Sequence record: PP129558
Reading direction: 5' to 3' (one strand)
Length of the DNA stretch: 64,000 nucleotides
From: Escherichia phage vB_EcoM_01
A program made the position numbers and the translations under genes. Positions 1 to 53,844 of this stretch are shown here, piece after piece (the first letter of the stretch is position 1; every line of letters begins with the position of its first letter). A model generated the notes under the pieces. That model was not told where the DNA came from and did not search any database. It saw nothing but the letters and a program-made list of their open reading frames with translations.

Positions 1-236
<236 letters not shown>

Positions 237-3921: not shown

Positions 3922-4019
3922 AAGGAGGAAGATTATGGCTACTTTTCAACAACTGAAAGATGTTTCACGTTTAGTAAGAAAAATCCGAGAAGCAGACGCT
4001 GCTGCTGTCTCTTATACAN

Positions 4020-4609
4020 NNNNNNNNNNNNNNNNNNNNNNNNNNNNNNNNNNNNNNNNNNNNNNNNNNNNNNNNNNNNNNNNNNNNNNNNNNNNNNNNN
4101 NNNNNNNNNNNNNNNNNNNNNNNNNNNNNNNNNNNNNNNNNNNNNNNNNNNNNNNNNNNNNNNNNNNNNNNNNNNNNNNNNNNNNNNNNNNNNNNNNNNN
4201 NNNNNNNNNNNNNNNNNNNNNNNNNNNNNNNNNNNNNNNNNNNNNNNNNNNNNNNNNNNNNNNNNNNNNNNNNNNNNNNNNNNNNNNNNNNNNNNNNNNN
4301 NNNNNNNNNNNNNNNNNNNNNNNNNNNNNNNNNNNNNNNNNNNNNNNNNNNNNNNNNNNNNNNNNNNNNNNNNNNNNNNNNNNNNNNNNNNNNNNNNNNN
4401 NNNNNNNNNNNNNNNNNNNNNNNNNNNNNNNNNNNNNNNNNNNNNNNNNNNNNNNNNNNNNNNNNNNNNNNNNNNNNNNNNNNNNNNNNNNNNNNNNNNN
4501 NNNNNNNNNNNNNNNNNNNNNNNNNNNNNNNNNNNNNNNNNNNNNNNNNNNNNNNNNNNNNNNNNNNNNNNNNNNNNNNNNNNNNNNNNNNNNNNNNNNN
4601 NNNNNNNNN
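4020..4609. other. Assembly gap (N run) with duplicated flanks and adapter remnants
   Basis: 3856-4006 repeats at 4630-4780; CTGTCTCTTATACA at 4007-4018 and ACACCACGTCTG at 4610-4621. Confidence 0.8.
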
Positions 4610-8939: not shown

Positions 8940-9395
8940 ATGAAAAAATTTATTTGCACCCGTTCCACTAACAGTGATATCCTTGTAGGTAAGGTTATCA
9001 AAGGAGAACTCTTCCATGCAAACGGTAAGAAATATATTCTGCTGAAAGATTCTTTCAACGGGGAATATCCGCGCTGCACTTTCTTCAATTACAACACTCC
9101 ATTTGCTTTAGAAGGAGATGCTTGGGACTGGGCTGAACTTCATCCTTTCTGTGAAGATGGACAGACAGAAGAGCAGGAAGAATCTACGGGAAGTTTACGT
9201 GATAAACTGCGTAATAAAGCACTGCAAGCAAATTCCCATTTTACTGAAATGGTAGACGCCGTTCTATTAGAGANNNAAGANNGNGCAAATGTTGTAGCTA
9301 CAATGCTACGTGCAAAAGGTTTGGATGTAACATTGGCAACCGCAGAGCACAGTATTTTTGGGATTATCAAACACATCGTTATTAGTTGGAACTAA
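8940..9395 (+). CDS. Hypothetical protein (contains ambiguous bases)
   Basis: ORF with GAGGAG RBS. Confidence 0.45.
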   Translation: MKKFICTRSTNSDILVGKVIKGELFHANGKKYILLKDSFNGEYPRCTFFNYNTPFALEGDAWDWAELHPFCEDGQTEEQEESTGSLRDKLRNKALQANSHFTEMVDAVLLEXXXXANVVATMLRAKGLDVTLATAEHSIFGIIKHIVISWN

Positions 9396-19158: not shown

Positions 19159-19771
19159 CTATACCAGACTTTCAAGGTATTTGTCAAGGGCTTCTTGATC
19201 ACCTTGACAAACATAGCAACGGAAGTCTTGAGCCGAAGGTTGTTTATTTTCATCCCAGTCCCAATAAACATTACCCTTATAACGTGAACCAGGAAACTCA
19301 AAAGAGGCTGTATGTGTAATGTATCCTGGGCCACCAGTGAAATCACAGAATGAGAATTGAGGATATGCCGCCTTTACTGCCTCAATAAACCAAGCTTTAC
19401 GATCTAAGGCTTCATTGATGCTATATGCATGTCTCTCCATTTCTTCCCAAGTTTTCCAGACACTTCTCTCATCAGGAGAAAAGACAAGCNATTCNGGANG
19501 NGNANNNAGNNGACTCCTCCAGTTTTGAGTAATCAAAAGCAGAATATACCCACCAACCATCCTCCAGTAAGGCTTTGATAGGGACGAAGCCTTTATCAGC
19601 ATATTGATCGAATTGTTTGACACGGTGGCTTGTGCAGTCTTCAAACTCACATTCTAAACGATATGCACCTTTTCGACGAGCCTCAAGACCGTGTGTACTG
19701 AAAATAACAACACTTCCTTCACCATCATTACGATCTACTTGATAAGCAACTACTGGTTTTGAATTTGACAT
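19159..19771 (-). CDS. Hypothetical protein (ORF interrupted by ambiguous bases at 19490-19512)
   Basis: Two table ORFs in same frame across N-containing stretch. Confidence 0.4.
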
Positions 19772-30524: not shown

Positions 30525-30785
30525 TTACTCCGCAATTTGAGCCATGAGATCACGCAGTTCGGTAAAACCGCCTACGTATGTTACCTCCCCGTTCACTTCA
30601 GACAGAATTTGTGGAAATGTGCGTGGAGGAACTCCGGTAAGATCAACAACTGTTTTAGTCATTGATTCTAAATCATAGTCTTGGTCAAGACTTAAATATT
30701 CAAACTGTTTATTGCGCATGGTTAATAGTTGTTTTGACATTTCACAAAATTGACAGTTAGGTTTACCAAAAATTACAAATTCCAT
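30525..30785 (-). CDS. Glutaredoxin (NrdH/Grx-like redoxin)
   Basis: CQFC active site, TFPQI, GGF motifs. Confidence 0.75.
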   Translation of the reverse strand: MEFVIFGKPNCQFCEMSKQLLTMRNKQFEYLSLDQDYDLESMTKTVVDLTGVPPRTFPQILSEVNGEVTYVGGFTELRDLMAQIAE

Positions 30786-31627
30786 TACCTCTCCTTATTA
30801 AGTAATACTGCTAAAGACTGTTCAATACCTTTATTTAAATCTGATTTTGTAAGATAGTGACTGGTTACTAGTTGTGACTTCACCGGACGTGCTGCTGGAG
30901 CATTATAGGTTGAAGCTGATACCGCCGATATCTTAACAGGTTCTGGCATCTGTGTCAAGATCTTTTCCGCAAACTCCGCCCAAGAAATAAGATGGCTTCC
31001 TGCAAAATGGTAAGTCTTAACAGACCTTGACCAACCTGTTTTTAATACTTCAAAAATAGCTTCTGCTAAATCTGGAGCATATGTTGGACAAGAGAACTGA
31101 TCAGCAACAATAATAAAATCACGTTGTCCATCATTATAGCGAGACAACATGGTTTTTAGAAAGTTATTTCCAAATTCACTATATACCGAGGCTGTTCGAA
31201 TAATATATGCATTTGGATTAACTCCTCGCACCATTTTTTCACCAAGTTCTTTCGTATACCCATAATTGTTTATTGGGTTAGGTGTAGTATCTTCAAAAAT
31301 AGGATGAGAATAATTAAAAATATAGTCTGTAGAAATATGCACAAAATCAATTCTAAGTTTGCTGCACACTGCTGCAATGTTTGCAGGTCCATACGCATTA
31401 ACAGCCAAAGCAGTAGCAAAATCCTGTTCAGCTTTATCTACAGCCGTATAAGCGGCGCAATTAATAACGCCATCTACATAATCTTCAACAATAGCGTTTC
31501 GCACAGCTTCAAAATTTGTAATATCTACACGTTCTTTAGGATAAATTAAAGATACATTTGAAGGAGCCACTTTACGTAAAGCTTGTCCCAGTTGTCCATT
31601 ACCACCCAATACCAGATATGTTAGCAT
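30785..31627 (-). CDS. rmlD: dTDP-4-dehydrorhamnose reductase
   Basis: N-terminal GGNGQLG Rossmann motif, YGYTK (YxxxK), last in rml gene order. Confidence 0.75.
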   Translation of the reverse strand: MLTYLVLGGNGQLGQALRKVAPSNVSLIYPKERVDITNFEAVRNAIVEDYVDGVINCAAYTAVDKAEQDFATALAVNAYGPANIAAVCSKLRIDFVHISTDYIFNYSHPIFEDTTPNPINNYGYTKELGEKMVRGVNPNAYIIRTASVYSEFGNNFLKTMLSRYNDGQRDFIIVADQFSCPTYAPDLAEAIFEVLKTGWSRSVKTYHFAGSHLISWAEFAEKILTQMPEPVKISAVSASTYNAPAARPVKSQLVTSHYLTKSDLNKGIEQSLAVLLNKER

Positions 31628-32187
31628 ACACCCTCGCTACGTAACTGTTGAAAAGATTTAGCCATTGCATCTTTTGTTGATAGAATAGGTTTAAAACCTT
31701 CGTCAAAAATCATATCGAAGCCCCAATCGATCCCTATATCAGGATCATCCCAACGTAAACTTTGTTCACTAGAAGGGTCGTATGGAGTTGTGCATTTGTA
31801 TTCAAAGATAGCATCCATACTCAAAACTATAAAACCATGTGCCAAACCAGGTGGAAGCCAAAACTGCGTATGGTGCCGTGCACGAAGAACAACACCGTCC
31901 CAAGCACCGTAAGTTGGACTATCTTTACGTAAATCTACAGCGAAATCCAAGACTTCTCCGCTTACACAACGAACAAGCTTACCTTGCGGGTTATTTGTTT
32001 GAAAGTGCATTCCTCGCAAAACACCGAAGTTTGATTTAGACATGTTATCTTGAACGAAAGTTTGTCTACCAATGATATCTTCGTATTTTTGTTCATTATA
32101 TGTTTCTAAAAAGAAACCACGATCATCTTTATAAACATCTGGTTTGATAATTACCGCACCTTCAATTTTTGTTTTTTCTACTTTCAT
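31621..32187 (-). CDS. rmlC: dTDP-4-dehydrorhamnose 3,5-epimerase
   Basis: [15 protein letters not shown] motif; ATGA start/stop overlap with rmlA. Confidence 0.7.
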
Positions 32188-33062
32188 TTTCTCTCCGCTA
32201 ATTTGAGTAGGTATTGCCCGTACTCTGTTTTCTTCAGTGAGTTTCCATGATATACCAAAGTCTCTAAAGAAATCCACCCTTTTTTGAAAGCAATTTCTTC
32301 CAGGCACGCAATCTTCAATCCTTGACGGTTCTCAATAGTCTGCACGAATTGACCAGCTTCCATCAGACTGGCGTGTGTTCCTGTGTCAAGCCAAGTAAAT
32401 CCTCGTCCGAGAACTTCCACTTGTAACTTCCTGTCTTCGAGGTAGCTGCGATTGATATCTGTGATCTCCAGTTCTCCACGCGCGGAAGGGGTTACTTCTA
32501 ATGCACGTTGAACAACAGAGTTATCATAGAAATACAAACCTGTGACAGCATAATCTGATTTAGGATTTTCAGGTTTCTCTTCAATAGAAATAGCTTGACG
32601 ATTACTCCCAAATTCAACCACACCAAATCGTTCAGGATCTTTCACCAAATACCCGAAGATACAAGCTCCGCCACAAACATCTACCATCTCACTGGCGTTA
32701 ATCAGTAGTTTACCAAAGCTTTGTCCGAAGAATAGGTTGTCACCTAAAATAAGAGCAACAGAGTCTTCTCCGATAAAATCTTTACCGATGATGAAAGCGT
32801 CCGCAAGACCTCGTGGCTCGGATTGGATTGCGTAAGTGAGTTTTATCCCAAACATAGACCCATCTCCGAGAAGATACTCAAAGTCTTCCTGATCGCCTGG
32901 TGTGGTGATGATTAAGATATCCTTAATGTCAGCCAACATCAATACCGATAAAGGGTAGTAGATCATGGGTTTGTCATACACAGGGAGCAATTGCTTGCTC
33001 ACACTGCGTGTTACCGGATGAAGGCGGGTTCCACTTCCTCCCGCCAAAATAATACCTTTCAT
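32184..33062 (-). CDS. rmlA: Glucose-1-phosphate thymidylyltransferase
   Basis: [19 protein letters not shown]-terminus. Confidence 0.85.
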
Positions 33063-33070
33063 AACCCTCC

Positions 33071-34063
33071 TTAAATCTTCTCACTCCACCATTGAGGGTT
33101 GTTTAAGTACCATTCAATCGTTGAGTAGAGATCTTGTTCAAATGTAGAGTTTGCACTCCAACCCAGTTCAGACTCTATTTTAGAAGGATTGATTTCATAA
33201 CGCAAGTCATGTCCTTTACGATCTTCAACAAAAGTTATCAAGTTGGAAGAAGGGTAGGTTCCTGCTTCTGGATGTACAGTATCCATGTAGTCACAAACCA
33301 TATAGATGATCTCCATATTGGTTTTGGGATTACGTGTTCCAACATTATACGTTTGACCTGGTTCTCCACCTGTTGCCACTTGAAGAATAGCTCGCGCATG
33401 ATCCTCAACAAAAAGCCAGTCTCGCACCTGATCGCCTTTACCATACACCGGAATCTCTTTATTCGTCAAGATACTTGTGATGATTTTTGGGATCAGCTTT
33501 TCTGGATGTTGATAAGGTCCAAAGTTATTGGAGCAGTTGGTTATCACAACAGGTAAACCGTAGGTACGGTACCAAGCTTTCACAAGATGGTCAGATGCTG
33601 CCTTAGACGCACTGTACGGGCTTGAAGGGGCATAAGCTGTCTCTTCGGTAAAGGGAACGCCAGAGTCTGCCATATCACCGTACACTTCGTCTGTGGAGAC
33701 GTGTACGAACATCTTCAGTTTATTTTTTGGGAGGAGCCTTGCAGCTTCCAATAAATTGTATGTACCAATAATATTGGAGTCGATGAAAACTCGTGGATTC
33801 TTGATAGAATTATCCACATGACTCTCTGCCGCTAAGTGAATGATGAAATCGGGATTGCACTCTACTACTAAACTTTTTACTTGGGCTTCGTTTGCCAAAT
33901 CTGTCATGCTTAGTTTAACGTGAGTGATATCGCCTACATTCTCAATATCTGCTGCATAGCTCATCTTATCAACGACAAAAACTTCGTTATTAGGATCTTG
34001 ACAAAGAGAGCGCACCACGGCACTCCCAATAAAACCAAGACCACCTGTTACCAGATAGCGCAT
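33071..34063 (-). CDS. rmlB: dTDP-glucose 4,6-dehydratase
   Basis: TGGLGFIGS Rossmann motif; YSASK catalytic motif. Confidence 0.85.
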
Positions 34064-34695: not shown

Positions 34696-34904
34696 TATTC
34701 CTCCTTAATTATTTCAAACTTGGCAACACCATTTACAATAATATGACCACAAGACATAACTCCTAGCCAAGGATCGCCGTTTTTCTTCAGGCGTTTACCG
34801 AATACATCACAAAAACCATTCTTCATTTCAGAGGCTTCATAAGAAGCCCCTTTGTCAAAAACGTCTTTGAATGTGTCGATTATACCAACACATTTCAAAA
34901 TCAT
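34695..34904 (-). CDS. Hypothetical protein
   Basis: ORF. Confidence 0.35.
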   Translation of the reverse strand: MILKCVGIIDTFKDVFDKGASYEASEMKNGFCDVFGKRLKKNGDPWLGVMSCGHIIVNGVAKFEIIKEE

Positions 34905-35989
34905 TCGAAGTCAAGCTCCTCATCATCAGAGAGATCTTTGTTAGCTGAATTCAATTTGTAGTTAGTTAACTGAATCTCTTGGGCTGCTGACTGAATCAAA
35001 TCAGGATTCAACCATTTTTCCATCCAAGCTAAAGGACTATGTTTAGGTGCTTTAAACTTGGCTTTCATTTTCAATCGACGATAAATAGGGGCAGCATTGA
35101 AATAAACCCACTGTTTAGACAATTCGGCGTTAAGACCTACAATAAAACGCCCTTCACTAAACAGGTAGTCACACCACTGTTCCTCTTGTTCAACAACAGT
35201 GTCGAGAATCAAAGTCAACTCTTCGATATTGTCTTCGTAAATTTTACGCCAAATTGGGTCATGCATCAATGCATCAATTACAGCATAATCCATCTTAACA
35301 TGCAAGATTTCATCTAGCATAATTTTCTGGATCAGTTTACAAGCCCCAACAAACAGTTGTTGTTCTGCCATAGCAAAAGTAGCAGAGAAGGAAGATATAA
35401 ACTGAATACCTTCTAATCCAATCAGGGCTACCATCCCTTTAAGAATCAGCAGTCGAAGTTCATCGTTAGCTTCAATCAATCCTAGAGCATACTTATGACC
35501 AGCTTCTTCCAACTGACCCATGATATCAGCAATGATACCCATACGATTGAAAATTTTATCATTAATCATAATCTGATTGATGACTTCGATTGGATCTGGA
35601 GTACATTGACGGATTATTTCAGAATACGTTAACGCATGGAGAACTTCCATTTCACTCTGCTTCATCATCATAGCACAGGCTTCATTGTTACTCAAGAATG
35701 GAGAGAACAAAGTGATGATTGATTTTGCAAGAGAATCATTTTCCCATTGGAACGATAAGTTTTTAATCATAACATCATAGTTGTTTTTAGAACAAGCTAC
35801 GAAATCTTTACGTGTCTGATCCAGATTGACTTCATTCTCATCCCAATCTTGTGCTTTTTGAAGTTTGTAGAGTTTGTGCATCTCTGGATAAGTTACGTTA
35901 ACAGAATCAAAGATCCCTAATTGTTCCCCTAAAAATACTGGATATTTTCCTGTTTTGTAAACTTCATTGTGTAAATTAATTGCTGCCAT
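34901..35989 (-). CDS. nrdB: Ribonucleotide reductase small (beta) subunit
   Basis: Size and position next to nrdA; assigned mainly by context and family resemblance. Confidence 0.75.
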   Translation of the reverse strand: MAAINLHNEVYKTGKYPVFLGEQLGIFDSVNVTYPEMHKLYKLQKAQDWDENEVNLDQTRKDFVACSKNNYDVMIKNLSFQWENDSLAKSIITLFSPFLSNNEACAMMMKQSEMEVLHALTYSEIIRQCTPDPIEVINQIMINDKIFNRMGIIADIMGQLEEAGHKYALGLIEANDELRLLILKGMVALIGLEGIQFISSFSATFAMAEQQLFVGACKLIQKIMLDEILHVKMDYAVIDALMHDPIWRKIYEDNIEELTLILDTVVEQEEQWCDYLFSEGRFIVGLNAELSKQWVYFNAAPIYRRLKMKAKFKAPKHSPLAWMEKWLNPDLIQSAAQEIQLTNYKLNSANKDLSDDEELDFE

Positions 35990-36011
35990 TTAAAATTCTC
36001 CTCAATAAAAA

Positions 36012-36025
36012 GGGGCCGAAGCCCC
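36012..36025 (-). promoter_or_regulatory. Intercistronic GGGGCTTCGGCCCC hairpin between nrdA and nrdB, copy 3 of 3
   Basis: Hairpin + T-run then GAGGAG RBS and nrdB ATG; duplicated at 37013-37026 by assembly. Confidence 0.5.
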
Positions 36026-36123
36026 TAGTTTCATCACATCTTGCAAGCTTCACAACCACCATCAGAATCTTCTTGTGCTAAAGAGTCTGCTGATTTTGTT
36101 CTACTATTAAGGTAATACAATGA

Positions 36124-36975
36124 NNNNNNNNNNNNNNNNNNNNNNNNNNNNNNNNNNNNNNNNNNNNNNNNNNNNNNNNNNNNNNNNNNNNNNNNNNNNN
36201 NNNNNNNNNNNNNNNNNNNNNNNNNNNNNNNNNNNNNNNNNNNNNNNNNNNNNNNNNNNNNNNNNNNNNNNNNNNNNNNNNNNNNNNNNNNNNNNNNNNN
36301 NNNNNNNNNNNNNNNNNNNNNNNNNNNNNNNNNNNNNNNNNNNNNNNNNNNNNNNNNNNNNNNNNNNNNNNNNNNNNNNNNNNNNNNNNNNNNNNNNNNN
36401 NNNNNNNNNNNNNNNNNNNNNNNNNNNNNNNNNNNNNNNNNNNNNNNNNNNNNNNNNNNNNNNNNNNNNNNNNNNNNNNNNNNNNNNNNNNNNNNNNNNN
36501 NNNNNNNNNNNNNNNNNNNNNNNNNNNNNNNNNNNNNNNNNNNNNNNNNNNNNNNNNNNNNNNNNNNNNNNNNNNNNNNNNNNNNNNNNNNNNNNNNNNN
36601 NNNNNNNNNNNNNNNNNNNNNNNNNNNNNNNNNNNNNNNNNNNNNNNNNNNNNNNNNNNNNNNNNNNNNNNNNNNNNNNNNNNNNNNNNNNNNNNNNNNN
36701 NNNNNNNNNNNNNNNNNNNNNNNNNNNNNNNNNNNNNNNNNNNNNNNNNNNNNNNNNNNNNNNNNNNNNNNNNNNNNNNNNNNNNNNNNNNNNNNNNNNN
36801 NNNNNNNNNNNNNNNNNNNNNNNNNNNNNNNNNNNNNNNNNNNNNNNNNNNNNNNNNNNNNNNNNNNNNNNNNNNNNNNNNNNNNNNNNNNNNNNNNNNN
36901 NNNNNNNNNNNNNNNNNNNNNNNNNNNNNNNNNNNNNNNNNNNNNNNNNNNNNNNNNNNNNNNNNNNNNNNNNNN
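36124..36975. other. Assembly gap (N run) flanked by 148-bp exact duplication
   Basis: 35976-36123 equals 36976-37123. Confidence 0.8.
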
Positions 36976-37034
36976 ATTAATTGCTGCCATTTAAAATTCT
37001 CCTCAATAAAAAGGGGCCGAAGCCCCTAGTTTCA

Positions 37035-39275
37035 TCACATCTTGCAAGCTTCACAACCACCATCAGAATCTTCTTGTGCTAAAGAGTCTGCTGATTTTGT
37101 TCTACTATTAAGGTAATACAATGATTTGCCACCCAGTCTAGCAAAATTCAAAATAAACTGCATCTCAGCTTTCACGGATAAACGTCCACCTACCAATTTA
37201 GAATAATCTAGCCAAGAATCACAAGAAATTCCTTGGTCAGTAAACTTGGTAAAGATACCATACATTTCTGCAAGGTCTTTAGCCGGAGTATCCCAGGCAG
37301 ATTGGTAGAACATTTTCAGTTTTTCGTAGTCTGGAACAATAAATAATACACTACCTTTCTGACTTTGTTTATACATAATGGTATCACGAACAGGATACAG
37401 AGAGTTAGTAGTATTGCTTACCAAACTGCTGGACTCATTAGGTGCAATAGCAGCCAATACACTGTTACGGATACCACCTTGTTCAATGATTTCAGCACGT
37501 AAGCCTTCCCAGTCCATTTTAAGATCAAAATTACCGATACTATCTACTGTTTTAGCATAAGTGTCAATTGGTAGCCAACCTTGAGGCCATTTGGTCTTAT
37601 CGATCCATTCTGCATTACCTTTTTCCTTAGCCAGACGCAGAGAGGCTTTTGCCAACCAGAAGTAATGACGTTCTGCAAGTTCATGCATTAATTTTTTAGC
37701 ATAAGCATCTGAATAATTTACAAAATTACTTGCCAAGTAATGCGCTAAGTTTGTAATGCCTACACCAATAGATCTACGTGCTTTAGCAGTTATTTCGTTA
37801 TGTTTAAATGGATAATCCATTGTTTCAATAACGTTGTCAATTGTCAATACAGTGTAGTATGCAACATCTTCATATTCTTCAGGTAATACACGACCAGCAA
37901 CAATAGAAGATAAGAAGCATAAAGCCAATTCTTGATCTTCTGTATTCTCACCAGTAAAGAGATCCGGCATACTGTGGAAAGCTTTAGTTGGTAAGAAGAT
38001 CTCTTGACACAGGTTTGATTGATACACCGTATCCAGGAAAGGTGTATGGTTGTTAACGTTGTCAGCAAAGAACATGTAAATACGTCCTGTTTCTGCACGT
38101 TGAACAATAATCTCTGTCAGAAGATCACGAGCCTTAACAAATTTTTTCTTAATGCGACGACGGCTTACTTTGTCATAAACTGCATCAAACTCTTCTTCAC
38201 TTTTATACAAAGCTTCATAAAGTTCTGGAGCATCATCACAACTAACTAACATCCAATCTTCGTTTTTTGCTGCTCGACGCAAGAATGAACGGTTAACAAC
38301 AATAGAATAATCCAGTTTGTCTACTCGTTTATCTATAGGTGTTGTTGGATTCTTCAGTCGAATCAGATCGTCGAAGTCTGGTTCAAGTATGGTAAAGGTA
38401 ACTGTAGCACTACCTCCACGGCTTGCTTGCTTCGAAGCTCCAACACTATCTTCCATCCATTTCAGATATGGAAGAAGACCACCATGAATAATACGATTAT
38501 TCTTAACACCTTGACCTGTGGCACGAGTTTGAAGATTAACACCAATACCTGCGTTATTTAACGTATACTCATGAGCTAAGTAATTAGCAATGGCTAAAGA
38601 CTCTGCTGTATCGTCTGCGCGGAATAAACAACAAGACGCACTTCCTTTGATTGGAGTTCGTAGAGTTGTCAGATACGGCGATGGCAGATTAATCTTAAGA
38701 TCGCTAACATAAGTATAAAGTTTTTTAATATCTTCTATACGGCGTTCTTTTGGTTGGATCTCCATAACCTTCATTGCGATACCAATGAAAAGAAACTGTG
38801 GAGACTCATGCACAACATCGTTTACTGCATCTCGAATAAGATATTTATCTACCATCTGACGTAAAACAGAATAACCATAAGTTAGATTTTTATTATGCTT
38901 TACAATCTTACCGATTTCTTTGATCTCTTCATCAGTATAATCCATTTTAGCCCAATGTCCACGTTCTACCATATCATGATAAAAGGTATTCAGTGAAGGG
39001 ATACTGTGGTATCCCCCATGAGCCTGTTTGTAAATCATACCCAGAAGAAGTCTTCCTGCCATATCACTGTAAGCTTGTGTTTTCTTGTCAATACACGCTG
39101 CAATCATTGCTTTATGCAGATCACGTGTAGACACACCGTCATAACACCGCTTCACAGCTTCTAATTCAATTTCAGACCAGTTTAGTTTACCTGCTGCAAA
39201 TTCAGACCACTTGCGAAGTTTTTCTGGATTAAACTCCTCTGTCTTACCGTTAGATTTAGTTACAAAACGAATCAA
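37035..39275 (-). CDS. nrdA: Ribonucleotide reductase large (alpha) subunit, class I
   Basis: 746 aa; multiple conserved Cys including C-terminal pair; context with nrdB and glutaredoxin. Confidence 0.8.
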   Translation of the reverse strand: MIRFVTKSNGKTEEFNPEKLRKWSEFAAGKLNWSEIELEAVKRCYDGVSTRDLHKAMIAACIDKKTQAYSDMAGRLLLGMIYKQAHGGYHSIPSLNTFYHDMVERGHWAKMDYTDEEIKEIGKIVKHNKNLTYGYSVLRQMVDKYLIRDAVNDVVHESPQFLFIGIAMKVMEIQPKERRIEDIKKLYTYVSDLKINLPSPYLTTLRTPIKGSASCCLFRADDTAESLAIANYLAHEYTLNNAGIGVNLQTRATGQGVKNNRIIHGGLLPYLKWMEDSVGASKQASRGGSATVTFTILEPDFDDLIRLKNPTTPIDKRVDKLDYSIVVNRSFLRRAAKNEDWMLVSCDDAPELYEALYKSEEEFDAVYDKVSRRRIKKKFVKARDLLTEIIVQRAETGRIYMFFADNVNNHTPFLDTVYQSNLCQEIFLPTKAFHSMPDLFTGENTEDQELALCFLSSIVAGRVLPEEYEDVAYYTVLTIDNVIETMDYPFKHNEITAKARRSIGVGITNLAHYLASNFVNYSDAYAKKLMHELAERHYFWLAKASLRLAKEKGNAEWIDKTKWPQGWLPIDTYAKTVDSIGNFDLKMDWEGLRAEIIEQGGIRNSVLAAIAPNESSSLVSNTTNSLYPVRDTIMYKQSQKGSVLFIVPDYEKLKMFYQSAWDTPAKDLAEMYGIFTKFTDQGISCDSWLDYSKLVGGRLSVKAEMQFILNFARLGGKSLYYLNSRTKSADSLAQEDSDGGCEACKM

Positions 39276-39291: not shown

Positions 39292-39546
39292 TTAATGCAT
39301 ATTCAAAACATCTACATCATAACCGAACTTCATTTCATTAAAAAGTCCATTAGCATATAGAAAACCTTCAAAATGAGTTATGTCATCAAACCCTTTTGCT
39401 TTTGCTCGACGGTCTGCTTCTTGTCTTTTAGGAGATAAACGTTTTGAAGTGTCTAGAATTACAGTTACATTACAACCAACAGTTTCATCAAAATAGACTT
39501 CGATTTCACAGCCTTCATATTTATTATCAGTCATTGTCCCTCTCAT
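39292..39546 (-). CDS. Hypothetical protein
   Basis: ORF. Confidence 0.35.
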   Translation of the reverse strand: MRGTMTDNKYEGCEIEVYFDETVGCNVTVILDTSKRLSPKRQEADRRAKAKGFDDITHFEGFLYANGLFNEMKFGYDVDVLNMH

Positions 39547-39953
39547 TGATTAGTATCATCTGCTTTCGCAGGATCATAAGAGTTACCGAAATCATCCATC
39601 TTAATATGTGACGCACCCCAACCTGTAAATTCTTCATCACCAAAATGAAAAATATCATTTTCTTGGTAGATTCGTTTAAAACCACAATTAGGTGAAACAG
39701 GGAAAGTGAAAAGCGTTGTATTTGCAAACACTACTCGCTTATCGTTATTGCTTCGGATATTCACATTACGCTCAACAGAATAGTGTGAATCTTCAGCCAT
39801 ACCCAGCATTACAAGCGACGCTCTAATAACAGCATTTTGTTTCTCGTGTGGGATATTGCCATTGTGTTTATTTGATTCTAGTTTCCAGATAGGGGTAGAC
39901 ATTACAGTAGACATGCTTACGGTAGCCCAAGTTGTAGTATTTACTAATGACAT
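39543..39953 (-). CDS. Hypothetical protein in nucleotide-metabolism cluster
   Basis: ATG after AAGGAG RBS; no confident motif. Confidence 0.4.
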   Translation of the reverse strand: MSLVNTTTWATVSMSTVMSTPIWKLESNKHNGNIPHEKQNAVIRASLVMLGMAEDSHYSVERNVNIRSNNDKRVVFANTTLFTFPVSPNCGFKRIYQENDIFHFGDEEFTGWGASHIKMDDFGNSYDPAKADDTNQ

Positions 39954-40051
39954 ATTTTCTCCTTCATTTTGAATGGGAGGACTCACCTCCTCCCAGTATT
40001 GTGCTATATTATACTAAAACTAATACTAAAGTCAATAATTATTTAAACAGA

Positions 40052-41050
40052 TCACCATTTAGTATGATTTGTTAAAAGTTGACGATGTTGAATCCAGCCT
40101 TTGAAATTGCCAGACCAAAACTTACCATTACGATCTACATGGGTAATACCTGGTTCCCAAGAGTTAAAATCCCAAGGAGCATTGATAAACAAATCTTCAA
40201 AACAGTTCTCTCCATATTGTTCGCATGTTTCTTGCATTGGAGTCGCTTGATGTTCAAACGGAGAAGCATGAACCTTGCGCCCAGTCAGCAAACGACCATA
40301 GATATCTAAAGCTTTATCTTTAGTTGCATTTAAACGACGATAGCTAACCTGTGCACAACACGAAGCTGAAATAGCTTTGGCTTCTTCCAAAGTAAGCACA
40401 ACAACTTCTCCAGATTCATCTTGAACGTAGTATCCACCAAAAACAAAATGATCGTCACCTTCTGTGCCAATATTATCATAGAAATGGTCTACATAAGGTG
40501 TGTGCCATTGCCCTGGTTTCAGCACTTCTGGTGTAGATTCTTCATACTCTTTGTGCATCTCTTTAGCCAAAGCTTCGATAGTAGGATCGGCTTCTTTGTC
40601 ATCACGTAGCCACCAGAAATTTTCATATTCTGTTGCTGTCAGAACTGTTTTAATTCGTTGGAAAGGTTCCAGAAGACGGTTTGCAACTTGTTTGTGGTAC
40701 CCTGCCAAAGAGAATTCTTCTGCAAAACGTGCTGCACTAAGCGCGGCAAGATCCCACCACTCTTGAGCAGTATAACCTGCATCAATAAGAGCGTCATGAT
40801 CAACACCTTTATCCTGCATACCAGGTTGGTTAGCCCCAAAACGATAAGGACGAGCAGGTTGATTTCGCACCATTTCAATCAGTGTTTTAACAGGTATAGC
40901 ACGGCTAGAAGCAGCATTACGACTGAACAGGCGGTGAGTCATCAATTCTGAATGAATAATACGTGGATATTCTAGTTCAAAAGTTACAATCTCTTTTCCG
41001 TCTTCAGTGATGGAATGCGCAATAATACTAGCCGAAATCTGTTTTGTCAT
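40052..41050 (-). CDS. thyX: ThyX-like flavin-dependent thymidylate synthase (variant THR in place of RHR)
   Basis: ELMTHRLFSRNAASSRAIP resembles ThyX RHRxxxxxxxS signature; 332 aa is longer than typical. Confidence 0.55.
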   Translation of the reverse strand: MTKQISASIIAHSITEDGKEIVTFELEYPRIIHSELMTHRLFSRNAASSRAIPVKTLIEMVRNQPARPYRFGANQPGMQDKGVDHDALIDAGYTAQEWWDLAALSAARFAEEFSLAGYHKQVANRLLEPFQRIKTVLTATEYENFWWLRDDKEADPTIEALAKEMHKEYEESTPEVLKPGQWHTPYVDHFYDNIGTEGDDHFVFGGYYVQDESGEVVVLTLEEAKAISASCCAQVSYRRLNATKDKALDIYGRLLTGRKVHASPFEHQATPMQETCEQYGENCFEDLFINAPWDFNSWEPGITHVDRNGKFWSGNFKGWIQHRQLLTNHTKW

Positions 41051-41059
41051 TTTTTCTCC

Positions 41060-41668
41060 TTAGTTTTTAAAATTGTTCAAAGTGTTAAAAACATCCAAAC
41101 ATGTTAGCCACTGATCTTCTAAACCTGTGATCACAACATTTGGTTTTTTCTTTAGTTCTTCTAGATGGTTATCTTTATAAGGCGTATTAAAATATATTTT
41201 AACCACTTCATCTGGAAAATATAGTAGGTTATCAGCCCTGTCATCTATTGCTATATCACAAGGCAATAAATATTTTTCTTTCGTAGCAAAAAAGCCGTTG
41301 CCAGATCCTTTGCTAAAATCAATCGTATCTAATGTTCTTAAAACATGCTTATGTTTAGAACTTAAGTGACCACCTTTTGTCACACTTGCGATCAAAAGAT
41401 TGCTACCTTTTCTTGAAACATACTTTAAGAAATCTGGCATACCTGTAACAAAACCCATTGTATCATAGAGATGAGGATTATCCAGAAATCCGTAAGGATC
41501 TATGTTGAACTCTTCCCTGAAACCAGGAAAATAGTTGGTAAGATCGTAATCTGCATTTTTTGTGAATGTGTCGATTTTAACACCAAGTCCACTAATCTTA
41601 TTCAACCATTCTAACCAAGCAACATCTAATGGAGCCACAACTAAATCCCAATCACATACTATCTGCAT
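41060..41668 (-). CDS. HAD-superfamily phosphatase, possible 5'-deoxyribonucleotidase
   Basis: N-terminal VCDWDLV (DxD); context. Confidence 0.45.
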   Translation of the reverse strand: MQIVCDWDLVVAPLDVAWLEWLNKISGLGVKIDTFTKNADYDLTNYFPGFREEFNIDPYGFLDNPHLYDTMGFVTGMPDFLKYVSRKGSNLLIASVTKGGHLSSKHKHVLRTLDTIDFSKGSGNGFFATKEKYLLPCDIAIDDRADNLLYFPDEVVKIYFNTPYKDNHLEELKKKPNVVITGLEDQWLTCLDVFNTLNNFKN

Positions 41669-42849: not shown

Positions 42850-43114
42850 AATTTTCCTCCTGAATTCCTACTGCGCCTTCTTCTGGGTAATCTGTATAAT
42901 AAGCTACCCTACCTTGATAGATAACATCACCATCATCATTGTAGATTGCTGTATCTTCTTGAATTGTTATTTTAACGTCAAGTAAATCGGGGTCTTTCTC
43001 GATGGTGTAGTTTAAACCTAACATTTCAAACAGTTCGAAAATTTCGTTACCTGTTAATGTAATGCTCATATTTCCTCCTTTTATTGTGGTTAGCAGAGTA
43101 TACACTAATATCAA
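42842..43114 (-). CDS. Hypothetical protein
   Basis: ORF. Confidence 0.4.
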   Translation of the reverse strand: MILVYTLLTTIKGGNMSITLTGNEIFELFEMLGLNYTIEKDPDLLDVKITIQEDTAIYNDDGDVIYQGRVAYYTDYPEEGAVGIQEENYV

Positions 43115-43155
43115 ATTTTTGTCAATAAAAAAGGGAGCAATAAGCTCCCTGATTA

Positions 43156-46461: not shown

Positions 46462-47190
46462 TTATTTCTTAGCAATGATTTTTGCAATATCAGGTTTAAC
46501 AAAGGTAGAAGGCTTCATGATCTTACCTTTATCATCAAAGAACACATACACTTTCTGTTTTTCATTATAAACAGCATGAACACCAGTGTATGCCCCTTCT
46601 GGACGATTGGCATTTCGTTCTTCAATTGCAGCGCATTCTTGTGCAATGGCTGAATCGATATCCGAAGTTTTCCAAGTTTTCAGCAACTGTTGTTTAGTTG
46701 GATACTTGGAATCATTACTTTTCAATACCTCTTTAATAACTTTCTTTTCTGGATATTTTGAACGGATTAGAGTGTCACGAGACATACGCATAATACCAGC
46801 AGCCATTAGTGCCATTTGAACTGGCTCTGTAAATGTTTGTTCCAAAGCATCAAAATCAGTATACACAGTTGGAGTAAAAACATCGCCTACAACATAGTCC
46901 AAGAAATTCATCGTATGTTCTTCACCAAAGAACATGTAAGTAAGATAACTGGATACTACAAAAATATCCGCTGCTGCATCCAAGAGTTCTACATGATCGT
47001 TTACTTTCGCGGCTGTTTCATACTCTTTAAGCTCTTCACGAACGAACCCGATTTGGGACATAAATAGCTCTTGAGTGAATTCAGGTTGTTCACCACCTCG
47101 TGCTTTGGCATTCCAATCAATTACGTGCTTTGCTGCATTTTTGAAAAATTCAGTATCGAATTTAATATCTTTAAAAAAATTCTCGATCAT
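46462..47190 (-). CDS. MazG-like nucleoside triphosphate pyrophosphohydrolase (tentative)
   Basis: REELKEYETA (EExxE) and ELLDAAADI (ExxD) motifs. Confidence 0.45.
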   Translation of the reverse strand: MIENFFKDIKFDTEFFKNAAKHVIDWNAKARGGEQPEFTQELFMSQIGFVREELKEYETAAKVNDHVELLDAAADIFVVSSYLTYMFFGEEHTMNFLDYVVGDVFTPTVYTDFDALEQTFTEPVQMALMAAGIMRMSRDTLIRSKYPEKKVIKEVLKSNDSKYPTKQQLLKTWKTSDIDSAIAQECAAIEERNANRPEGAYTGVHAVYNEKQKVYVFFDDKGKIMKPSTFVKPDIAKIIAKK

Positions 47191-53463: not shown

Positions 53464-53844
53464 TCCATATTCNGTCTCTTATNNNNNNNNNNNNNNNNNN
53501 NNNNNNNNNNNNNNNNNNNNNNNNNNNNNNNNNNNNNNNNNNNNNNNNNNNNNNNNNNNNNNNNNNNNNNNNNNNNNNNNNNNNNNNNNNNNNNNNNNNN
53601 NNNNNNNNNNNNNNNNNNNNNNNNNNNNNNNNNNNNNNNNNNNNNNNNNNNNNNNNNNNNNNNNNNNNNNNNNNNNNNNNNNNNNNNNNNNNNNNNNNNN
53701 NNNNNNNNNNNNNNNNNNNNNNNNNNNNNNNNNNNNNNNNNNNNNNNNNNNNNNNNNNNNNNNNNNNNNNNNNNNNNNNNNNNNNNNNNNNNNNNNNNNN
53801 NNNNNNNNNNNNNNNNNNNNNNNNNNNNNNNNNNNNNNNNNNNN
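53464..53844. other. Assembly gap (N run) with duplicated flanks
   Basis: 53322-53463 repeats at 53860-54002; AGAGACAG adapter remnant at 53845-53852. Confidence 0.8.

Follow-up and report, generated by a model that had tools for sequence, protein, structure and literature searches.

A ThyX-like protein with rearranged segment order and an altered active-site signature in Escherichia phage vB_EcoM_01, a candidate flavin-dependent thymidylate synthase

In flavin-dependent thymidylate synthases of the canonical ThyX type (PF02511/TIGR02170), represented by TM0449 (1O26) and the enzymes of Mycobacterium tuberculosis (2AF6) and PBCV-1 (A674R, 4FZB), an N-terminal helical segment precedes the core. 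The canonical signature is RHRX7S (Myllykallio et al., 2002, as quoted in PMC2826268). PolB (4P5A), a C5-methylase of uridine and deoxyuridine monophosphate (UMP and dUMP) in polyoxin biosynthesis, is collinear with ThyX by sequence. ThyA-type synthases and their phage derivatives, the hydroxymethylases of dUMP and deoxycytidine monophosphate (dCMP) and the 5-hydroxy-dCMP synthase, hold the same metabolic position, with C5 chemistry on pyrimidine deoxynucleotides, but are unrelated to the ThyX type in fold and mechanism; the derivatives show that phages can retool C5 enzymes for base modification. We analyzed a ThyX-like open reading frame (ORF) in a 64,000-nucleotide stretch of Escherichia phage vB_EcoM_01 (PP129558), here called the window. 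The ORF belongs to phrog_85, a family of 'putative thymidylate synthase' proteins of N4-like, ICP1, rV5-like, phi92/phAPEC8-like and phiCbK-like phages and of several Pseudomonas phage groups (e.g. phiMK, VCM), and it is a typical member of this family without notable difference. Unlike canonical ThyX and PolB, it has the helical segment after the core. Conserved elements specific to its family add about 110 residues, and the family carries Thr for Arg78, Ala for Tyr91, Ala or Ser for Glu86, Ser or Ala for Arg74 and a partly conserved Arg80. We assign a probability of about 0.7 to the reading that the ORF encodes the phage's own, unorthodox flavin-dependent synthase of deoxythymidine monophosphate (dTMP), of a phage-specific ThyX branch.

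A Pfam scan of the ORF matched Thy1 (PF02511) with 35 bits, above the gathering cut-off of 24.8; the match covered residues 22-175 only (profile positions 59-191), and no ThyA match was obtained. In PHROGs, the protein matched phrog_85 'thymidylate synthase' with E = 2e-109. An AlphaFold2 model built from 62 homologues, with a mean predicted local distance difference test score of 84.5 and a predicted template modelling score of 0.84, has the ThyX fold, with sequential superposition on canonical ThyX covering only 128-160 residues. The Pfam and phrog_85 matches together with the model make the ThyX relationship secure. Against PDB sequences, neither a phmmer search with the single sequence nor a shallow family profile (at least 62% identity) gave a ThyX match, and a ThyX chain was matched only by a diverse profile of 122 representatives. 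An earlier note on this DNA, made from the letters alone, had named a profile search without any ThyX relationship as the outcome that would speak against its ThyX assignment; this did not occur, the Thy1 score being above the cut-off. The note had also proposed an alignment with ThyX structures, and at the sequence level this matched Thermotoga maritima ThyX, out of order.

The profile of the 122 representatives matched T. maritima ThyX in three pieces. Profile positions 26-55 and 137-176 aligned with native residues 61-90 and 160-199, respectively, and positions 215-258 (...SASCCAQVSYR...HASPFEH) aligned with native residues 19-60 (SAVRAARVSF...HETPFEH; chain residues 31-72). HMMER and hhalign matches were both out of order, and the canonical opening helical segment (Ser30...His53) is encoded after the core, at residues 226-268. 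When residues 219-268 were moved ahead of residue 21 in silico, the Thy1 score rose to 52.5 bits and the match extended over profile positions 14-191, and the score against TIGR02170, the NCBI thyX equivalog, rose from 31.6 to 50.6 bits. In native order, hhalign aligned the family with T. maritima ThyX in two separate matches (41.5, E = 1.8e-5; 31.9, E = 5.7e-4); after re-ordering, it returned one collinear alignment over T. maritima residues 20-201 (74.1, E = 5e-11, probability 97%). Control constructs, consisting of the core alone or with the C-terminal tail ahead of the core, scored 26-32 bits and showed no gain. Neither the N-terminal strand at residues 6-14 nor residues 196-225 aligned significantly to T. 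maritima residues 1-19. The rearrangement may be a clean circular permutation, with the strands at residues 202-219 equivalent to canonical beta1-beta2, or the helical segment may have been transposed by itself.

The unusual length claimed by the earlier note was borne out, with 332 residues against 216-270 in solved ThyX-family chains, tags included. It is explained by the relocation of the helical segment to a place after the core, together with the family-specific insertion, connector and tail (Table 1). A frameshift or gene fusion was rejected as the cause, because length and order are conserved throughout the family.

By tblastn, the protein was present in 1034 phage records, and the match was collinear over at least 80% of the length in 993 of them. 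The matches included phAPEC8-like, rV5-like, ICP1, N4-like and phiCbK-like phages, several Pseudomonas phage groups (such as those of phiMK and VCM), and phages of Flavobacterium, Stenotrophomonas and Achromobacter, and were mostly annotated as 'putative', 'FAD-dependent' or 'ThyX-like' thymidylate synthase. Compared with its phrog_85 homologues, the ORF was collinear over 95-100% of the length at 29-100% identity, with the common motifs THR..SSRA, WHxP, SYR, HxSPFEH and QxR. The roseophage homologues have N4 gp30 as their closest listed match. When all of 1.84 billion cluster representatives were scanned with HMMER, at least 5000 matched, each standing for a cluster at 50% identity, and 1634 of these had E < 1e-30. 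The gene is thus already annotated, and the ORF represents an ordinary case of a family known to the databases.

A search of 185,579 species genomes with two exact peptide patterns found 10 loci, all on contigs of metagenome-assembled genomes, and no cultured cell with a phrog_85 protein as its only thymidylate synthase. Since these ten metagenome contigs were all that the search gave, the branch looks phage-restricted by this limited pattern test. The contigs are 7-129 kb long, come from genomes assigned to widely separated phyla (Bacteroidota, Chloroflexi, Gammaproteobacteria, Opitutia), and are probably phage contigs mis-binned into cellular genomes.

The altered signature lies at residues 35-53 (ELMTHRLFSRNAASSRAIP). 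Where canonical ThyX has RHRX7S, the ORF reads T38-H39-R40-x7-S48, so the THR variant of the RHR signature described in the earlier note is real. Among 122 full-length representatives of clusters at 50% identity, the basis of all conservation counts given here, T38 was found in 117, H39 in 121, R40 in 98, S48 in 120, R50 in 121 and A51 in 121, a conservation far beyond chance. The Thr-for-Arg replacement is therefore a family-wide signature and not a peculiarity of this gene.

Residue equivalences were taken from the hhalign alignment to T. maritima ThyX, and residue roles in the canonical enzyme from published work (PMC11940539, PMC6514825). His79, Ser83, Asn85, Asn169, Glu58 and His59 of T. 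maritima ThyX are kept as H39, S43, N45, N144, E266 and H267. The dUMP-binding residues Ser88, Arg90, Arg147 and Arg174 correspond to S48, R50, R125 and R149, each of which is present in 120-122 of the 122 representatives. Arg174 is a uracil ligand (PMC11940539, PMC6514825), and because its equivalent R149 is invariant, the nucleotide site looks intact and uracil-specific. H39, N45, S236 and H261 are likewise invariant or nearly so. The last two, which align with Ser30 and His53, are encoded on the segment after the core; in canonical ThyX, Ser30 contacts the flavin C4=O and His53 stacks on folate or flavin (PMC11940539, PMC6514825).

Some homologues of about 520-680 residues carry inteins or homing-endonuclease inserts (Intein_splicing with HNH, or LAGLIDADG, in those scanned against Pfam); homologues with such inserts are P0128, P0135, P0143, P0152, P0187, P0205, P0209, P0216, P0218, P0231 and P0255. 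At least five insertion sites were found, after H33, R40, F42, S48 and H261 in the numbering of the ORF, all of them within active-site motifs. Inteins are typically located in conserved active-site motifs. The positions of the sites therefore single out these motifs as the best-conserved stretches of the gene, which fits functional importance. The possibility that homologues of about 630-680 residues are domain fusions was rejected, since Pfam showed inteins or homing-endonuclease domains in the ones scanned, and most others have intein-like junctions.

Several observations weigh against a dTMP synthase. The native TIGR02170 score of 31.6 bits is far under the equivalog cut-off of 87.9, as is the score of 50.6 obtained after re-ordering. 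Arg78, which in canonical ThyX stabilizes the anionic reduced flavin at N1/C2=O and contacts dUMP, is replaced by T38, and the catalytic Tyr91 by A51 (Ala in 121 of 122 representatives); Tyr91 is strictly conserved in canonical ThyX, where the change Y91F slows flavin oxidation about 1000-fold (PMC11940539, PMC6514825). The second Arg of the RHR signature, Arg80, is kept in just 98 of 122. Furthermore, a literature search, mainly of open-access papers and preprints, found no biochemical or genetic test of phrog_85 members. Other replacements are Ala or Ser for Glu86 and Ser or Ala for Arg74. These changes suggest that part of the flavin site would have to be rebuilt, presumably from residues invariant in this family, and R30, K120, H183, R238 and R323 may compensate for the loss of Arg78 and Tyr91. 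The same literature search found no description of the rearranged segment order or of the Thr and Ala replacements of Arg78 and Tyr91, so that neither feature appears to have been described.

The gene content of the phage type argues for dTMP synthesis. The annotation of Schickermooser (NC_048196), the reference Phapecoctavirus, includes NrdAB, NrdDG, glutaredoxin and a MazG-like pyrophosphohydrolase, and lists no ThyA, canonical ThyX, dCMP deaminase, dUTPase or dihydrofolate reductase (DHFR). In tblastn searches of the window and NC_048196, Escherichia coli ThyA found no ThyA-like sequence (best E = 0.93), and T. maritima ThyX found nothing. ThyA homologues were detected in 4423 other phage records, but none of 40 records sampled across this ranking belonged by name to a phrog_85-bearing lineage. 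The ThyX-like gene of N4-like phages has a deaminase of deoxycytidine triphosphate or dCMP nearby, and that of ICP1 is separated from nrdA by a few kb. The G+C content of the window is 38.8%, compared with about 51% for the E. coli chromosome, so the thymidine demand of the phage should be above that of its host. According to the BASEL authors, restriction-modification systems are exceptionally effective against the rV5-like and phi92-like relatives, which argues against a protective thymidine hypermodification; the BASEL phage JohannBauhin has a homologue at 53% identity. In view of the missing second thymidylate synthase, the AT-rich DNA and the restriction-sensitive relatives, ordinary dTMP synthesis is most likely, and base modification is not. 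The earlier note had left the choice between a divergent thymidylate synthase and a related pyrimidine-modifying enzyme; the ThyX relationship was upheld by Pfam, phrog_85 and the profile alignment, and base modification is the less likely of its two options.

By analogy with canonical ThyX, a homotetramer in which three subunits contribute to the active site, we infer FAD (flavin adenine dinucleotide) binding, oligomeric state, substrate and product. The protein would be an oligomeric FAD enzyme reduced by NAD(P)H. It would take the methylene group of CH2-tetrahydrofolate onto the flavin N5, pass it to C5 of dUMP, and reduce the C5 methylene to a methyl group, yielding dTMP and tetrahydrofolate. 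Because tetrahydrofolate would be the product, dihydrofolate reductase would not be needed. The enzyme might act with aerobic and anaerobic ribonucleotide reductases, glutaredoxin, the NT5C-like nucleotidase and the MazG-like pyrophosphohydrolase, and the joint outcome would be more deoxythymidine triphosphate (dTTP) for an AT-rich phage genome replicating in E. coli.

It is unlikely, in our estimate, that the enzyme makes a modified pyrimidine nucleotide instead of dTMP, for example 5-hydroxymethyl-dUMP by trapping of the exocyclic methylene intermediate. A precursor of this kind could be used for hypermodification of the DNA, in which the rmlABCD and glycosyltransferase genes might take part. 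This idea draws on the replacement of Tyr91 and Arg78, which act in the canonical flavin and methylene-transfer steps, on the presence of rmlABCD in the phage and of four glycosyltransferase genes in the replication module of the reference genome, and on the precedent of phage ThyA homologues that evolved hydroxymethylase and 5-hydroxy-dCMP synthase activities. However, the family spans many lineages, including N4-like phages, ICP1, Pseudomonas phages such as phiMK, and phiCbK-like phages. We know of no report of thymidine replacement in these lineages. The examined N4-like stretch contains no rml or glycosyltransferase genes, and the restriction sensitivity of the rV5-like and phi92-like relatives counts against a modified base as well; the BASEL authors state that dTDP-sugar (deoxythymidine diphosphate sugar) machinery gives no protection against restriction. 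Moreover, as the reference genome has no other thymidylate synthase, an enzyme consuming dUMP would compete with the only dTMP route of the host.

In a bolder form, the clade would be a mechanistically distinct flavoenzyme with a flavin site rebuilt by H183, R323, G77-M78, R30 and K120, whose product in some or all of the phages, a C5-modified dUMP such as 5-hydroxymethyl-dUMP, could be decorated by the dTDP-sugar and glycosyltransferase genes of the phage; we regard this as improbable. A weaker version would be a naturally permuted ThyX that makes dTMP without the canonical Arg78 and Tyr91.

As a separate observation, the model gave a weak Foldseek match (E = 0.019, probability 0.99) to the 413-residue 'thymidylate synthetase' of Bacillus phage SP-15 (BFVD A0A127AWA5). 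About half of the thymines in SP-15 are replaced by a hypermodified base. The SP-15 protein, which belongs to a different family than phrog_85, may be an enzyme of the ThyX fold that acts in hypermodification.

A ThyX-fold protein without methyltransferase activity, which would instead regulate by binding nucleotides or flavin, or act as a decoy, for example by sequestering dUMP or disturbing host metabolism, appears quite improbable. It would agree with the degraded signature (Thr for Arg78, Ala for Tyr91, variable Arg80) and with the low equivalog score. On the other hand, some 20 positions vary little or not at all among the 50%-identity clusters, including every aligned dUMP ligand and the equivalents of His53 and Ser30, the inteins of homologues sit exactly in the conserved motifs, and the family replaces ThyA in phages, as far as sampled. 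Methylation of another uracil substrate, either UMP, as by the ThyX homologue PolB, or uracil in RNA or DNA, is very improbable, as the ORF has no special similarity to PolB in sequence or context and is not closer to it than to dUMP-specific ThyX.

The features of the ORF and its surroundings are listed in Table 1. Within the window, DNA 99% identical across 6 kb is found in phAPEC8-like E. coli myophages (genus Phapecoctavirus, Stephanstirmvirinae). An identical copy of the 332-residue protein (100%) is encoded by Escherichia phage KKP 3954, and phAPEC8-like phages have proteins annotated 'putative thymidylate synthase' at 99% identity.

Table 1. Features of the ThyX-like ORF and its neighborhood in the window; residue numbers without prefix are those of the ORF, and equivalents refer to T. 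maritima ThyX.
Feature	Position	Strand	Residues or basis
ThyX-like ORF, phrog_85, 332 residues, ATG start, TGA stop	40052..41050	-	ORF read, Pfam, PHROGs, tblastn
Altered ThyX signature ELMTHRLFSRNAASSRAIP, residues 35-53	40892..40948	-	T38 for R78, H39=H79, R40=R80, S43=S83, N45=N85, S48=S88, R50=R90, A51 for Y91
ThyX core, residues 20-175, collinear with T. maritima ThyX residues 59-200	40526..40993	-	R125 (=R147), N144 (=N169), R149 (=R174)
Family-specific insertion within core, about residues 54-94	inside 40526..40993	-	Invariant G77-M78
Family-specific connector, residues 176-218, mostly beta strands in the model, no aligned canonical counterpart	40397..40525	-	Invariant W182-H183-x-P185
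Relocated segment, residues 219-268, equivalent to canonical N-terminal helices (T. maritima about 20-60)	40247..40396	-	S236=S30, H261=H53, E266=E58, H267=H59
Family-specific C-terminal tail, residues 269-332	40055..40246	-	Conserved S313-G-N315 and Q321, invariant R323
Ribosome-binding site AAGGAG, 5 nt 5' of ATG; shares nucleotides with the stop codon of the NT5C-like gene before it	41056..41061	-	Sequence read
Candidate HAD-type NT5C-like 5'(3')-deoxyribonucleotidase, upstream gene	41060..41668	-	Pfam 23.7 bits (cut-off 24.8); phrog_420 'unknown function'
nrdA, class Ia ribonucleotide reductase large subunit	37035..39275	-	
nrdB, class Ia ribonucleotide reductase small subunit	34901..35989	-	
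Two small ORFs of unknown function between nrdA and the ThyX-like gene (one at 39543..39953)	39292..39953	-	
Terminator-like hairpin (43150..43132), then near-consensus sigma-70-like promoter (43125..43097)	43097..43150	-	Consensus matches only
Near-consensus sigma-70-like promoter TTGACT-16-TATAAT, directly downstream of the ORF, ahead of the next gene	40008..40035	-	Consensus match only
rmlD-rmlC-rmlA-rmlB, complete dTDP-L-rhamnose set	30785..34063	-	Adjoins a gene annotated glutaredoxin in two reference phages examined
MazG/PRA-PH-like nucleotide pyrophosphohydrolase	46462..47190	-	PF01503, phrog_671

The nucleotide-metabolism cluster reported in the earlier note (nrdAB, HAD phosphatase and the small ORF of unknown function) was correct, with all genes on the minus strand. 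From the sequence signals, the ThyX-like gene is probably the last of a transcription unit that begins at the terminator/promoter pair around 43100-43150, and the terminator is also annotated in NC_048196. A phosphatase-like NT5C candidate for deoxynucleoside monophosphates is an unexpected neighbor of a dTMP synthase and may shape the dUMP and dTMP pools. The MazG/PRA-PH-like gene lies within the same replication and nucleotide-metabolism block. In the reference genome, the glycosyltransferase genes are placed between helicase and endolysin (NC_048196 103701..106845).

Some features of the window concern its assembly. The two copies of an exact 149-bp direct duplication (35975..36123 = 36976..37124, offset 1001 bp) enclose a run of 852 N (36124..36975). 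The duplicated sequence spans the 3' end of nrdA, the nrdA-nrdB spacer and the start of nrdB and yields a spurious ORF of 318 residues (36034..36990, 'MAAIN...X...CEACKM'). In the reference phages, nrdA directly adjoins nrdB, and the run with its duplication looks like an artefact of assembly, scaffolding or masking, not biology. Further N runs at 4019..4609 and 53483..53844 and many runs of 1-4 bases (e.g. 157..159, 9274..9284, 19490..19511) indicate a draft or masked record, so ORFs that cross them are unreliable.

The phrog_85 proteins are among the commonest nucleotide-metabolism enzymes of virulent phages, with a function assigned by homology, and the label 'FAD-dependent thymidylate synthase' carried by more than 1000 phage genomes is best read as provisional. 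The family has a re-ordered chain and is missing two residues regarded as essential to the canonical mechanism; if active, it would reveal which parts of the ThyX active site are indispensable, with relevance for ThyX inhibitor design and for the flavin-methylene mechanism. ThyX chemistry yields tetrahydrofolate, not dihydrofolate. An active enzyme should therefore free the dTMP supply of the phage from host ThyA and DHFR, and antifolates such as trimethoprim may then block dTMP synthesis by the phage less than that of its host.
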